Origin: a virus
Lineage: Duplodnaviria; Caudoviricetes
Reading direction: 5' to 3' (one strand)
IMG/VR virus record: IMGVR_UViG_3300027728_000001
Span: 1 to 56,466 of that record
DNA length: 56,466 bases
Under the pieces are notes generated by a model. It was not told the DNA's origin and did no database searches. It was given only the letters and a program-made list of their open reading frames with translations. The position numbers and the translations under genes were made by a program. Positions 32,357 to 37,241 of this stretch are shown here, piece by piece (within the stretch, counting starts at the first letter, position 1; each line of letters starts with the position of its first letter).

Positions 32357-32968
32357 TCACCCCACATTCCTATTAGTTTTGCTCGGAGCCTTGCGACCTC
32401 GGCCTCTAGCTGCTGGATCCGCTTTGTCAATTGTTTCACTTTCTCCCCCTCCTTGGACGAACATTCCAGTGTCACCGTCTACAAACTCCAGTAATGTATG
32501 TGGGTACAGTAGTTCTAGCAATTGAGTAGCATTACGCAAGTGAGACTTTGGGGCGACCAAAGTATTTACGTTGTGGTTGCGTCCGCGGTCGAACACCACC
32601 TGCTCCTTCCATGTGTCATCCCGGTCTAGGGCCGACACCCACACCCACTGGCCGGTCGGCTTGGACTTAAAGATGTAGGCAAAGTGCTTTAGCCTTTCCT
32701 TCTCCATGCCCTGCACATTATCAACGAACACAGTGTCGTAGGGGTAATCCTCCGGGGAGGTGAATACGATGCTGCGTTCCTTTATCTCCACGCTCATTAA
32801 CACCACTGCGTCTGGAGTCTCGCAGTGATCGGTGAGTTTATTAAACCCCTTCAGCACCAGCTTGCGTCCGTGCGAGGCCGACCGGCCGGCGGAACGCAGG
32901 TCATCGACCCACGCCCGCTCGGCCCGGTGGCCGTTAGTCAATGCCGATTTGAACGAACGATGAGCCAC
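32357..32968 (-). CDS. PD-(D/E)xK-like nuclease-fold protein
   Basis: G..AE..TPD..SVEIKER; GGAGG RBS before GTG 32968. Confidence 0.6.
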   Translation of the reverse strand: MAHRSFKSALTNGHRAERAWVDDLRSAGRSASHGRKLVLKGFNKLTDHCETPDAVVLMSVEIKERSIVFTSPEDYPYDTVFVDNVQGMEKERLKHFAYIFKSKPTGQWVWVSALDRDDTWKEQVVFDRGRNHNVNTLVAPKSHLRNATQLLELLYPHTLLEFVDGDTGMFVQGGGESETIDKADPAARGRGRKAPSKTNRNVG

Positions 32969-33455
32969 GTGGCCTCCATGCGTAGGCGCGAATCCCAGAG
33001 CGGGGCTCGCTGAAGTTACGACCTCGGACAATGCGGGCCTCCTTGGCTCGCTTGTACAACTCTGCCGGCGGCGGATCGCTGGGGCGAAGCCCGTCGTCCA
33101 GCCATTCCAACTGGGCGGGAATCCATTCGGCCCCCCGCAGTTCGTCCGCGTCACGCCGTACCGCTGCAGACCATTCAGCCGTCTGGCCGAAGACCTCTGC
33201 GATGTCAGCGTCGTCGTAGCCGGGATCCAACTGGCAGATCACAGCCAGCCTCGCAATGGACGGGACGCCCCCGTACGACCGTAGGATACGGACTACGCCC
33301 TCGCAGGTCGTCCGCTCAAACCCCAGGTCGTCCGCTACCCTCCTCGTCGGTTCCTTGTTGATCACGCAGCGATGGTATAGCTGCCCTGCGAATCCCAAAG
33401 CATGCTGCAATGGCCCGGCACAATCTTTTCCAAAAGCCCAACTTAACCTTGTCAT
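32934..33455 (-). CDS. Putative HTH DNA-binding protein
   Basis: RRVADDLG and DADIAEVFGQT HTH-like segments; GGAGG RBS. Confidence 0.5.
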   Translation of the reverse strand: MTRLSWAFGKDCAGPLQHALGFAGQLYHRCVINKEPTRRVADDLGFERTTCEGVVRILRSYGGVPSIARLAVICQLDPGYDDADIAEVFGQTAEWSAAVRRDADELRGAEWIPAQLEWLDDGLRPSDPPPAELYKRAKEARIVRGRNFSEPRSGIRAYAWRPRGSSFVQIGID

Positions 33456-33567
33456 CAGACCCTCCGTGAATGTAAGCATGCTCTGGCGGGAAAGCATGCG
33501 GAACGTCAAACCGCCACAAGATCTCCGTTACCGTCTCATCGACTAGCAAATCGTTCTTCTCGTCCAT
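33316..33567 (-). CDS. Small hypothetical protein
   Basis: GGAG RBS; overlaps both neighbours. Confidence 0.45.
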   Translation of the reverse strand: MDEKNDLLVDETVTEILWRFDVPHAFPPEHAYIHGGSDDKVKLGFWKRLCRAIAACFGIRRAAIPSLRDQQGTDEEGSGRPGV

Positions 33568-34597
33568 GTCGTCTCCCCAGTTCCTTTCGGAACATAGCTT
33601 TGATCCAACCATTCAACTTGCCGTTCGTCGCAGCCCAAGACACGTAGTGGTCAGGCAACTCTGAGAGTTTGAAGCCGGCGTACTTCCCCTTCAGCGGGTT
33701 GTTGTAAGTGCCCACTGACCGGACTCCCTTCCATGTGATATCCACATCACGCCCATGGACGCTGCCTGCTCCCCGTCCGTGGGTGTTGCGGCGCATCTCT
33801 TCGATGAGCCTGGCACTGGCGAGCTTCTCAGCCTTCTTCGCAGCAGCCTCCGCAGCCAAGGCATCTATCTCCGCTTGCGAGAGTGGTTTTTTCTCGGCCG
33901 CTTCCCGTACACCTTTTTTGACTTCCTCGTCGTCGGAACCACAGAACATGTCCACGGCCGTGATGACTGTGTGATCCAGAGTTCCGGCTGTGCAATCAAC
34001 AATTTTGAAATGAGGCTTATCGGAGCGAGCGATTCCCGCAATTCTGTCGGCAGCGGTGAGAAGACCGTCTCCGTCAACAACCCCGGGGAGAGGACGAGTG
34101 GCTCGTCCAACGCATTGCAACCAGAAGGATCGGGATCGGGTTGGTCTGGCAAGGATGAGGGTGGCGGTCGGTGGGTAATCGAATCCCACGGCGACGACTT
34201 GGCAGTTGACCAAGACTCTGGCCTGCCGGGACTTAAAGGCTGTGAGTGCATCGGCTCGCTCCTCGTCAGGCATGGTGCCCCAGACACAGACGGCGGGGAT
34301 CCCGTAGTTCCTAGTCAGGTACTCAGTCGCACCCTTGGCTGCAAACACACTGCCTGTGAAGAGGACGGTCTGACCTTCCATCTCTTCAGCGGTGATCATG
34401 CAGGCACGGTGCAAGTTGGCTTCCTTGTTCAGCTCCGCGGCGAGCTTCGACTGGTTGAAGTCACCACCGACAAGATTGACCGCCGACAGATCCAGTGACT
34501 CCACACGGCTCAGCTTGCAAATAGGCGGCACTGACCATCCGTTTGCGATGGCCCAGTGGAGGTCGTAGTTACAGACGGACTCTTCGTAGAACTGCAT
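33536..34597 (-). CDS. SF2 (YejH/Irc3-like) helicase, C-terminal half, ending in a GKYxG..LP..Y..W domain
   Basis: Motifs IV-VI: VLFTGS, VGFDYP, QCVGRATR. Confidence 0.88.
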   Translation of the reverse strand: MQFYEESVCNYDLHWAIANGWSVPPICKLSRVESLDLSAVNLVGGDFNQSKLAAELNKEANLHRACMITAEEMEGQTVLFTGSVFAAKGATEYLTRNYGIPAVCVWGTMPDEERADALTAFKSRQARVLVNCQVVAVGFDYPPTATLILARPTRSRSFWLQCVGRATRPLPGVVDGDGLLTAADRIAGIARSDKPHFKIVDCTAGTLDHTVITAVDMFCGSDDEEVKKGVREAAEKKPLSQAEIDALAAEAAAKKAEKLASARLIEEMRRNTHGRGAGSVHGRDVDITWKGVRSVGTYNNPLKGKYAGFKLSELPDHYVSWAATNGKLNGWIKAMFRKELGRRHGREERFASR

Positions 34598-35100
34598 GCG
34601 TTACTCCTAAGCATGGGTTTGCCATCCATCCTGAATGGCGTAGCGGTGAATCCAGCGACCATGGCTCCTTGGTCTTGGAAGAACTTCAACATCTCAATCA
34701 CAGCCTCACTGCACTGCATGTGGGCTTCGTCAACGATCACAAGCTGAAAGCCATTCAGCCGGCGGTATCTCTTCTCACCCTGGCGAGAGGATAATAAGGT
34801 TTGCTTGCTGGCGACGATGACCTTGGAAGGCCAGCAGTCACGCTCGGCAACGTAGTCGGCCATCTCAATATCGGGATCGGAGTCAGTGATCTGCCGCACC
34901 TTGTCAGCAGCCTGCCAGACCAGCTCACGCATGGGGGCGATGATCAACGTGCGGCCTTCGATCTGATCAGCGAGTGCAGTGAAGACCACGGTTTTGCCAG
35001 CGCCAGTGAACAGTCCAACCAGCGTGGACTTCACGCCTCGCTTCATTGCGTCCAGCAACGAGTCGATCACTTCTGTCTGGTAGTCACGCAGCCTGAGCAT
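34510..35100 (-). CDS. SF2 helicase, N-terminal half
   Basis: LRDYQ, TGAGKT, VDEAH, GFTATP; helicase-like sequence stops at 34612. Confidence 0.9.
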   Translation of the reverse strand: MLRLRDYQTEVIDSLLDAMKRGVKSTLVGLFTGAGKTVVFTALADQIEGRTLIIAPMRELVWQAADKVRQITDSDPDIEMADYVAERDCWPSKVIVASKQTLLSSRQGEKRYRRLNGFQLVIVDEAHMQCSEAVIEMLKFFQDQGAMVAGFTATPFRMDGKPMLRSNACSSTKSPSVTTTSTGPSQTDGQCRLFAS

Positions 35101-35187: not shown

Positions 35188-35532
35188 TCAACGGAACTCT
35201 GAGACGAACTCTTCTTCTTCAACAGCGGCCCGCTTGCCACCAACCAACTGGATGGCATTGACGTTCAGAATCATCTTGGATCGCTTCTGGCCTTCCTTCT
35301 CCCATGTCTGCTGATCCAGTTCCCCCTCAACAAGCACCTGTGTGCCCTTGTTCAGAAAGGCAACGACTCCGCCACCTCGCCAATATTCACAATCCATAAA
35401 CAGGACTTTGCCCTGCTTGTACGGACTGTTGACGGCGATGGAGAACTTCACCACTTCACGCTCACCTGCCGTGCGGACTTCGATATCCGCAGTCAGGTTG
35501 CCCATCAGAATCGTCCGGTTGTAACTAGCCAT
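35188..35532 (-). CDS. ssb: Single-stranded DNA-binding protein
   Basis: YNRTILMGNLTAD.E.R..KGTQVLVEGEL..W..G.KRSK; acidic tail. Confidence 0.95.
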   Translation of the reverse strand: MASYNRTILMGNLTADIEVRTAGEREVVKFSIAVNSPYKQGKVLFMDCEYWRGGGVVAFLNKGTQVLVEGELDQQTWEKEGQKRSKMILNVNAIQLVGGKRAAVEEEEFVSEFR

Positions 35533-36172
35533 TGGTCACTGTCTCCTTATCCCAATGTTTGACAAACTCAGCCTTGCAGCGGTCATACACATCCCGCCCA
35601 ATCGCCTTCTCTCGCAGCCGTAACTCCACGGTCTGCATCACCTTCACGGCATCGGGCCTGCTGCCCGCATTGCCAATCGCAGTCTTCCACCCTGCCTCCA
35701 GCTTTTCAGTGGATACGCGGACTTGGAGGTTCCCTGCCTTGGTGGGCACAACAGCCACAGTCTCACCGTCATCATCCGCCTCGCCAGAGAATCCTCCGGT
35801 GAGTGCCATCAGCAGGGTTCGCTTGGCATACGTCGTTGCCGCACCAAAGCCCTGCATGTCACCTTTTGGATTAACCAGTGGGGCAATGCCTGTGATGTAC
35901 TGGCCCGTCTTGTGACGCAGTGTTCCAACCAGCACCCACTGGCCGGCAATCAGACCCGGCCGGAAATCCGGCAGAGCCAGACCGTGCTTGGTCAGCGGGC
36001 CACGCAGTGAGTCGCAGCAAGTTGCGTAGGAACTGAACCTGCTTTTGAAATGCGGGTTAGCAGCGTCCAACTCAACGTGCTTGTACTCAGCTTGTGCCTT
36101 GGCCAATGCCTCTGTGAGCGCACTGGTATCTGGCGATGACGATGGCCCCAAGATCTCATTGTTGTCGTTCAT
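35525..36172 (-). CDS. ERF-family single-strand annealing protein
   Basis: ALAKAQ..NPHFKS..Q.FGAATTYAKR..DDDG. Confidence 0.9.
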   Translation of the reverse strand: MNDNNEILGPSSSPDTSALTEALAKAQAEYKHVELDAANPHFKSRFSSYATCCDSLRGPLTKHGLALPDFRPGLIAGQWVLVGTLRHKTGQYITGIAPLVNPKGDMQGFGAATTYAKRTLLMALTGGFSGEADDDGETVAVVPTKAGNLQVRVSTEKLEAGWKTAIGNAGSRPDAVKVMQTVELRLREKAIGRDVYDRCKAEFVKHWDKETVTNG

Positions 36173-37023
36173 ACTGTGATGACCTCCTCCTCTTGTCTCT
36201 TCGCCCACACAGGGAACTGAAGCTCCGTGATCTCTCCAGCATCCGCCGCCTCATAGACGCCGGTATCTCTCCGCAGACGAACCTCCTCCATTACGCGCGC
36301 CATACGCAGGCCCGCCTCATCCACAACCTCCGTGGGCAGATAGAACACATGGCAGGCATAAGGCGCCATGGTTTGAACGAAGACGAATGGCATGCGGAAC
36401 TTCTCCATGCCGAGAGCCATCGCCCCCTGCACGTAGAACCATTCCTGCTCGGCGTAGCCGTAGTCCATCACACTGCGGTAGATCTTGTCCCACGTGCTGG
36501 AGGTGGTCTTCAGATCCCACCACAGGCTCGGGGTGCAACCGTCGGGCCTGACCTTGCAAAGCTGGCCGGCCAATTCAAAGAAGACCGACACCTGCGTCTC
36601 AGTGGTCTGCTCCACCAGTGCCTTGGCAGCAGGGTTCTCCAAGAGGTGCTGGAGCATGATCTCTAGCTGCCAGCCCTCTTCGGCGTTGCAGTCGATCAGC
36701 CCCTTCCTCTCGGCCTCTTCCTTCCAAGCGTCGTAGGCTTTCCCCCGGCGGGCACCATTGCTGGCCAGAACATCCGCTGGCGGGATGGCCAGAACGTCAG
36801 TCAACTTTTTCCCCTCACAGACGGCCGAGACGAGCGTGTCGAACTTGCTACCCGTGCGGGTGGCCGTGGAGCCCCCAAACATGGAGTGACCAAGATCCAT
36901 CCAGCGTTGGGCCTCGCCGCCAAACCGGGCGACAGAGTGCAGGTACGACCTGCCCAAGAAATCTGTGTGAGCGTGGTACTCCGCGTTGGGCATACCGATA
37001 ATCTTCTGCGGGAACTTGTCCAT
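36169..37023 (-). CDS. RecE/DUF3799-like PD-(D/E)xK exonuclease
   Basis: MPNAEYHA, CKVRPD, WDLKTT, YGY..Q..FY; AGGAG RBS before ATG 37023. Confidence 0.88.
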   Translation of the reverse strand: MDKFPQKIIGMPNAEYHAHTDFLGRSYLHSVARFGGEAQRWMDLGHSMFGGSTATRTGSKFDTLVSAVCEGKKLTDVLAIPPADVLASNGARRGKAYDAWKEEAERKGLIDCNAEEGWQLEIMLQHLLENPAAKALVEQTTETQVSVFFELAGQLCKVRPDGCTPSLWWDLKTTSSTWDKIYRSVMDYGYAEQEWFYVQGAMALGMEKFRMPFVFVQTMAPYACHVFYLPTEVVDEAGLRMARVMEEVRLRRDTGVYEAADAGEITELQFPVWAKRQEEEVITV

Positions 37024-37241
37024 ATGTACACTCCTAGAAAGAAGCCCCATCCTTGGGGCGGAAAGAATCCCTCCGGATAAGACGCCGCCCAATGACGAGC
37101 GAACGCCCCAACTGGCCGATGGCGAGGAGAGTGAGCAGAAGGCTCACTTCAGAGAGAAAGATGAGGCTGGTTAGGAGGGCTAGGTAGGAGCCCTGTATGA
37201 TTCGGGAGAGCCCCCCACTAAGGGGGCTTCTGCGACCGATC

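Follow-up and report, generated by a model that had tools for sequence, protein, structure and literature searches.

The stretch of DNA analysed here, referred to below as the window, is the IMG/VR virus record IMGVR_UViG_3300027728_000001, a complete viral record of 56,466 bp with direct terminal repeats; the runs that contain its sequence carry the label of lake-water metagenome. On its minus strand lies a RadD-like SF2 helicase whose coding sequence is interrupted, after motif III, by a very short insert, and which is very probably made as two subunits, the second of them (the C-half) being initiated independently of the first (the N-half). Both halves are under purifying selection, close relatives are mostly interrupted in the same way, and other members of the family encode the halves as two plainly separate genes. 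An earlier note, made from the sequence alone, had read the interruption in two ways, as a programmed translational bypass of the T4 gene 60 kind or as a built-in splitter of the gene; the first of these readings did not hold up against the relatives; the second held up in its main part.

Anatomy of the interrupted helicase gene

The N-half open reading frame (ORF) encodes 196 amino acids (AA) at 34510-35100 on the minus strand, with Pfam matches to ResIII (E 1.2e-24) and DEAD (E 7.4e-15). Its residues 1-163 correspond to the RecA1 part of an SF2 helicase, including the Walker A, DEAH and motif III (TAT) sequences, and end at the Met encoded at 34614-34612; residues 164-196 are an out-of-frame tail which is read across the start of the C-half. 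The C-half ORF, of 353 AA at 33536-34597 on the same strand, contains the last elements of RecA1, the RecA2 domain (Pfam Helicase_C, E 6.5e-13) and a C-terminal extension of about 130 AA. With RecA1 on the one half and the Helicase_C domain of RecA2 on the other, the pair has the domains of an SF2 helicase of the RadD-like, PHROG_16 kind; the N-half covers positions 272-427 of this DNA helicase profile (E 3e-30) and the C-half positions 428-629 (E 2e-32), and, since 427 is followed directly by 428, there is no gap between the two. Relative to the N-half, the C-half is in the -1 frame, and the two ORFs overlap by 88 nt (34510-34597, minus strand), with the N-half tail in the +1 register of the C-half. 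After the last homologous Met the N frame runs on for 33 further codons, 29 of them past the C-half start, and ends at a stop 88 nt inside the C-half.

The C-terminal part of the C-half (33536-33930, minus strand) is conserved beyond Helicase_C, with an invariant G-T-Y-x-N-P-L and an invariant W; its sole match is a sub-threshold one to Pfam QSregVF_b (E 0.0016; 18.7 bits, below the cut-off of 22).

At the junction the sequence CATGC occurs twice on the minus strand, 17 nt apart, the two copies spanning 34615-34594. The first ATG (34614-34612) encodes the last Met of the homologous part of the N-half and the second (34597-34595) opens the C-half ORF; the 17-nt unit, which begins with the first ATG and ends immediately ahead of the second, occupies 34598-34614. 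Within it the Shine-Dalgarno (SD) core AGGAG (34604-34608, minus strand) lies 6 nt 5' of the C-half ATG, the first codon after the first ATG is CTT and the second AGG, and the C-half frame is shut just 5' of the second ATG by TAG (34609-34607) and TAA (34603-34601). The earlier note had described the repeat, the position of AGGAG, the AGG codon and the two stops in just these terms. The arrangement CATGC-N12-CATGC is not in excess over chance, being found once in the window against 0.32 expected, with at least one copy in 25 of 100 shuffles.

It had also been claimed that removal of one unit would fuse the halves into a single protein of 515 AA with about the normal spacing after motif III. 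The length is correct (163 + 352), but the spacing is not: the fused relatives examined have two residues between a conserved Met/Leu and an F/Y-Y motif, the window has one, and removal of 17 nt therefore leaves the protein one residue short at this point. Removal of 14 nt -- AGGAG, the 6-nt spacer and ATG -- gives the length of the fused relatives, in which case the Leu next to the first Met would correspond by homology to the residue (Leu, Arg or Gln) at that place in the fused proteins. By comparison with the fused relatives, the inserted material is best parsed as these 14 nt, in effect a putative minimal ribosome-binding cassette. The loop in which it lies tolerates added length in fused relatives, with 4 more residues in P0058 and 5 more in L059.

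Interruptions that shift the frame usually betray an indel from assembly or sequencing, or else a helicase gene recently inactivated, and both were considered here; the chance that either applies is practically negligible. In Logan contigs from four sequencing runs, a kind of assembly that drops rare variants, the junction was present without indel in 4/4 contig sets, one of them at depth 168. One set represents a divergent variant strain, with 14 substitutions and no gaps, none of the differences falling within the 17-nt unit; three of the four runs are possibly the source sample or close to it, which makes the variant strain the independent one. Stronger support than that from the four runs comes from dozens of related contigs, assembled elsewhere, that carry the same insert. 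Between the window and five insert-bearing relatives, the ratio of nonsynonymous to synonymous substitution rates (dN/dS) amounts to 0.04-0.08 in the N-half and 0.09-0.17 in the C-half, with dS at 0.6-1.4, so that the split must be old and both halves under purifying selection. The gene is thus not the dead one-off that the earlier note had allowed for.

Split and fused relatives of the helicase

When viral contigs were scanned with the C-half, 45 loci (53-90% identity) were recovered, 31 of them split at the same spot and 14 fused. The 17-nt ATG-to-ATG arrangement seen in the window (type A) is present in 18, and in three more (L040, L041 and L043) the 17 nt are retained with the first ATG replaced by TTG. 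Two loci, L031 and L033 (type B), have a different, shorter interruption, in which codons for Gly-Arg-Gly provide GGGAGGGG as the SD sequence and, in L033, the start is GTG. Four have short plain junctions (type C): a stop, 1 nt and ATG in L017, an ATG-TATGA overlap in L018, and 31 nt in L032 and L046. In four others, L036, L037, L042 and L045 (type D), an ORF of 150-155 AA lies between the halves, with ATGA and TGATG overlaps. The 14 fused loci are uninterrupted.

A second scan, of metagenome contigs, gave 16 loci, two of which, L062 and L063, duplicate the contigs L003 and L006 of the viral set. Nine (L061-L069) have the 17-nt form and the partial locus L072 the same junction; L071 also has 17 nt between two ATGs, its N-half ending at an ATGA overlap. 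L070 carries a 20-nt version with CTG first, L059 and L060 are fused with a 7-residue linker, L073 has no junction, and L074 is a distant fused homologue. The 17-nt spacing is found in all in 21/45 viral and 11/16 metagenome loci, the 20-nt locus being the twelfth of the latter. The N frame stops at the same place in most of the 17-nt relatives, and at once in L025, where the N-half stop and C-half start form TGATG, and in L071. Among the best 120 database homologues of the C-half, 93 are proteins of 303-371 AA with Helicase_C only and 27 are fused proteins of 500-516 AA with both domains. No close cultured relative was found: blastn of the locus against the phage collection gave no match, and tblastn of the C-half against it gave only matches of at most 41% identity, mostly to Mycobacterium phage helicases.

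What the split forms have in common is a start codon with an SD sequence. An SD-like core, of at least 4 nt complementary to the anti-SD, is found 4-9 nt before the ATG or GTG in 44/44 split loci, representing 28 distinct junctions; since SD and start are present in every split form, the shared feature is a normal ribosome-binding site for the C-half. The halves are also seen as separate genes, with stop/start junctions in L017, L018, L025 and L071 and with the intervening ORF in the four type D loci. Since in some phages a whole gene separates the halves, the helicase of this family evidently functions in the form of two polypeptides. The intervening ORF (L042:2534-3001, L036:1619-2071) is 45% identical between the two lineages, which marks it as a real gene. 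Searches with the L036 and L042 versions gave no Pfam match above threshold, no PHROG and no informative Atlas neighbour, and thus no evidence of a homing endonuclease or of another kind of mobile element; no copy of the type D ORF was found in the window or in the other loci. It appears to be helical or a coiled coil.

In the tree of the C-half, a well-supported branch (99/98) has the 17-nt forms all to one side of it; the 14 fused loci of the viral set cluster (98/86), as do types C and D (98/93). The tree is unrooted; the outgroup L074 (36% identity, branch length near 10) attached inside the close clade and is too distant for the changes to be assigned a direction as fissions or fusions. 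In an enlarged tree, the fused state needs at least three changes that are forced by the starred branches. The database protein P0007, of 510 AA and 81% identical to the window C-half, is fused, and groups with the close insert-bearing clade of the window, other 17-nt lineages falling outside; in the same way L071, which is split, and L059, which is fused, are sisters (support 99). With fused and split lineages interleaved like this, the loop has switched between states several times. The L059/L060 linker and the L071 insert are a net one nucleotide apart (21 against 20 nt before a shared TACTAC). By parsimony, P0007 is probably a secondary re-fusion which has kept Leu-Arg from the insert; when it was used as query, viral contigs gave split loci only and metagenome contigs no identical contig.

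Such alternation among close relatives (P0007 and the window, L059 and L071), together with the 5-nt direct repeats that flank the unit exactly, might also be expected of a switch at the DNA level, in which some members of the population lose the 17 nt by slippage between the CATGC repeats, so that the two kinds of allele, split and fused, occur side by side. The deletion was seen in no contig, though contigs drop rare variants, and P0007 does not look like the product of a CATGC deletion, retaining as it does both Leu-Arg and the normal length; a switch of this kind has only a very small chance of being correct.

How two such halves might fit together was examined by modelling N-half residues 1-165 with the C-half, using 21-row alignments. 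The complex reached an ipSAE of 0.73 (best control 0.00), and so passed a mark that 58/80 solved complexes reach and 2/110 mismatched pairs do, though with single-chain relatives already solved (RadD, 6jde) this score may be a memory of those folds. At least 92% of the contacts were common to the runs, with a partner predicted local distance difference test (pLDDT) score of at least 78, and C-half residues 1-22 pack on N-half residues 23-34 and 148-165. The model suggests that the cut lies in a loop inside RecA1, rather than at a domain boundary, with the C-half providing the last RecA1 elements, and it supports assembly of the two halves.

From all this the following sequence of events is proposed. 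A permissive loop right after motif III would have received a short insert consisting of an SD, 6 nt of spacer and an ATG. Ribosomes translating the N-half would continue out of frame for 33 codons and then terminate, and other ribosomes would start at AGGAG/ATG and make the C-half. The two polypeptides would then assemble, with RecA1 of the N-half completed by the first 20 or so residues of the C-half and the ATP site formed between RecA1 and RecA2, as in single-chain helicases. A small hairpin at the junction may tie initiation of the C-half in part to upstream translation, through RNA-unfolding coupling.

Several observations sit less well with two independently initiated subunits. The 88-nt overlap of the ORFs is unusually long: according to the part of the source at hand (PMC12548453), more than 80% of overlapping gene pairs share less than 30 bp, and termination-reinitiation coupling is lost at -25 nt. 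Going by those figures, reinitiation coupling would be unlikely across 88 nt and initiation of the C-half would have to be de novo. The window, like most of its 17-nt relatives, has two matching ATGs; the SD alone does not account for the constant 17 nt or for the GC before the second ATG, which are conserved at dS near 1; and the assembly of the halves, as put forward above, is a modelled one.

The hairpin and the case for recoding

The hairpin (34595-34615, minus strand; -5.4 kcal/mol) has, as the earlier note had described, both AUGs in its stem and GGAG in its loop, and is the minimum-free-energy fold. Its stability is not beyond chance, with a z score of -1.14 (28/200 shuffles fold equally well), or -0.62 in a 71-nt context. 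Over 22 distinct insert-bearing junctions, 79.5% of the cells pair and a change on both sides is seen in 1/6 pairs, 4/6 of which hardly vary; this level of covariation is attained by 153/500 shuffles. That lineages with dS near 1 share the 17-nt length and the GC preceding the second ATG does fit a small hairpin pairing AUGC to GCAU. Hairpin-gated coupling of C-half initiation is accordingly possible but unproven. Of the splitter that the earlier note had envisaged, the two-subunit helicase is thus supported by the SD in all split loci, by the two-gene relatives, by selection and by the model, and the gating by the hairpin, which is weak and shows almost no covariation, is not.

The same elements are those that had suggested programmed bypass, in which peptidyl-tRNA-Met would leave the first AUG, slide 17 nt and re-pair with the second AUG, making the 515-AA helicase as the sole product or a minor one. 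Matched ATGs 17 nt apart are present in the window and most 17-nt relatives, the small hairpin contains the first AUG, and GGAG lies 6 nt before the second; natural gaps as short as 20 nt, with an SD-like element before the landing site, are described in the portion of the source available (10.1101/2022.08.31.505936). The match between the codons fails among the relatives: the first codon is TTG in L040, L041 and L043 and CTG in L070, all four of which bear the insert, and the type B loci L031 and L033 have no matching codon. The residue at the first ATG varies between Met and Leu in fused relatives too, and the ATG/ATG match can be put down to a conserved Met and a start codon occurring together. 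Bypass of the gene 60 type is characterised, in the same portion of that source, by matched codons that are conserved, a signal in the nascent peptide, and a rare or stop codon directly behind the take-off site (10.1101/2022.08.31.505936). Here no stop or rare codon follows the take-off site. The next codon, CTT, is used at 10.8 per 1000, and AGG, at 8.5 per 1000 codons and about 12% of Arg codons in the 66 crude ORFs of the genome, is not rare either, and is swapped for CGG, AAG or GAG in relatives; with the N frame open for 33 codons, there is nothing to stall the ribosome. Every landing codon is a start preceded by a canonical SD, even where it is GTG (L033). Of the elements described for bypass, the SD before the landing site is the only one plainly seen here, and it marks an ordinary ribosome-binding site just as well, which is the simpler explanation. 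To this can be added the weakness of the hairpin and its near lack of covariation, the relatives with an intervening gene, whose halves work as separate proteins, and the product of such a hop, which would be one residue shorter at the junction than the fused relatives examined. Programmed bypass is, on these grounds, very unlikely.

A mixed case, in which the helicase is made as two subunits and a fraction of the ribosomes also hop 17 nt from AUG to AUG to give some single-chain enzyme, is given a similarly slight chance. If it were true, this partial hopping, in an uncultured lake phage, would be the shortest natural AUG-to-AUG bypass and would set the ratio of fused to split enzyme, and the constant 17 nt and the GC before the second AUG would be signals for the hop, rather than mere context of a ribosome-binding site.

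A programmed -1 frameshift within the 88-nt overlap could in principle join the halves, the C-half frame being -1 to that of the N-half and the N frame reading on past the second ATG for 29 codons. The N-half ORF contains no X XXY YYZ heptamer anywhere along its length, the -1 frame is shut by TAG and TAA up to the second ATG, and in L025, L071 and L017 the N frame ends at or before the C-half start; the product would also have extra residues that are absent from every fused relative. Such a frameshift is extremely improbable; an upstream one had already been set aside in the earlier note. A +1 frameshift at CTT-AGG was considered too and was rejected, as the +1 frame is not that of the C-half and closes after 12 codons.

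Independent initiation of the C-half, assembly of the halves and whatever coupling there may be between their translation are what we infer; directly observed are the anatomy, its conservation, the selection on both halves and the two-gene relatives.

Known systems and the surrounding genes

One comparison is with the bypass in T4 gene 60 (50-nt gap) and its homologues. In both cases a phage gene of DNA metabolism is interrupted by a short, non-coding-looking stretch with identical flanking codons, the first of them in a hairpin and the second preceded by a GGAG-type element. Compared with gene 60 as it appears in the accessible portion of the source, the window differs in having no stop or rare codon after take-off and in a codon match that fails in four insert-bearing relatives; it differs also in that, in 44/44 split loci, an SD and a canonical start stand where landing would take place.

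Another parallel is found in split phage enzymes. The large subunit of T4 topoisomerase is split into gp39 and gp60, and NrdA of an Aeromonas phage is split by MobE, as told in the part of the paper at hand (10.1101/2022.08.31.505936). There, as in the window, an enzyme gene has been cut inside a domain and both pieces retained, and in both the split phage enzymes and the helicase family some relatives have a gene between the pieces. As far as that part of the paper goes, the pieces of gp39/gp60 and NrdA assemble into active enzyme; for the helicase of the window, assembly is a modelled prediction. Also unlike these cases, as that part of the paper presents them, no homing endonuclease was found here (Pfam and PHROG searches with the L036/L042 ORF), the insert in the window would consist only of SD, spacer and ATG, and there is no nearby N-half stop, the overlap being 88 nt. 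The helicase joins the known split phage enzyme genes, and its loop shows repeated fission or fusion. Literature searches found no relevant split phage helicase and no split RadD, which is not proof that there are none.

Among solved structures, the best relative of P0007 is E. coli RadD, an SF2 DNA repair helicase (PDB 6jde; E 4.3e-26 over residues 3-338). RadD and P0007 share an ATPFR motif after motif III, where the split lies. RadD differs from the split helicase in consisting of one chain (586 AA) and in its C-terminal domains, and identity is low.

With regard to translation, the coupled gene pairs described in the available part of PMC12548453 are typically at spacings of -4, -1 or small positive values. 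The RNA-unfolding coupling presented there resembles the window in that a downstream start lies in a small hairpin, melted by upstream ribosomes, and has an SD. Unlike typical coupled pairs, going by the same part, the window has its upstream stop 88 nt inside the downstream gene, and its hairpin is weak.

A candidate recoding site is hereby removed, and gene callers and annotators should treat the junction as two genes. In its place there would be a natural SF2 helicase core, severed within RecA1 directly behind motif III and yet maintained by selection in many lake phages. Close relatives have this loop either fused or split, the latter in at least four ways; this should be of use in studies of protein fission and fusion in evolution and in the design of split helicases. 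It would seem that one gene can become two through very little added sequence, no more than an SD, an ATG and the 6-nt spacer between them.

The helicase ORFs follow, on the minus strand, genes for an exonuclease VIII-like protein (37092-36169; PHROGs E 5.1e-34), an Erf-like annealing protein (36208-35525; PHROGs E 6.9e-20) and SSB (35532-35188; PHROGs E 3e-23), in that order. These three (35188-37092) and the helicase form one recombination/replication module. The Erf-like ORF, if taken from its first start codon, overlaps the exonuclease ORF at 36169-36208, and the SSB and Erf-like ORFs overlap at 35525-35532. Downstream of the helicase, at 32357-33509 on the minus strand, lie ORFs of 265 and 191 AA in different frames, with an overlap of about 220 nt; neither has a match to a PHROG, and the true start of the longer one may be further downstream. 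By a crude ORF call, the minus strand carries 47 of the 66 ORFs of the window.

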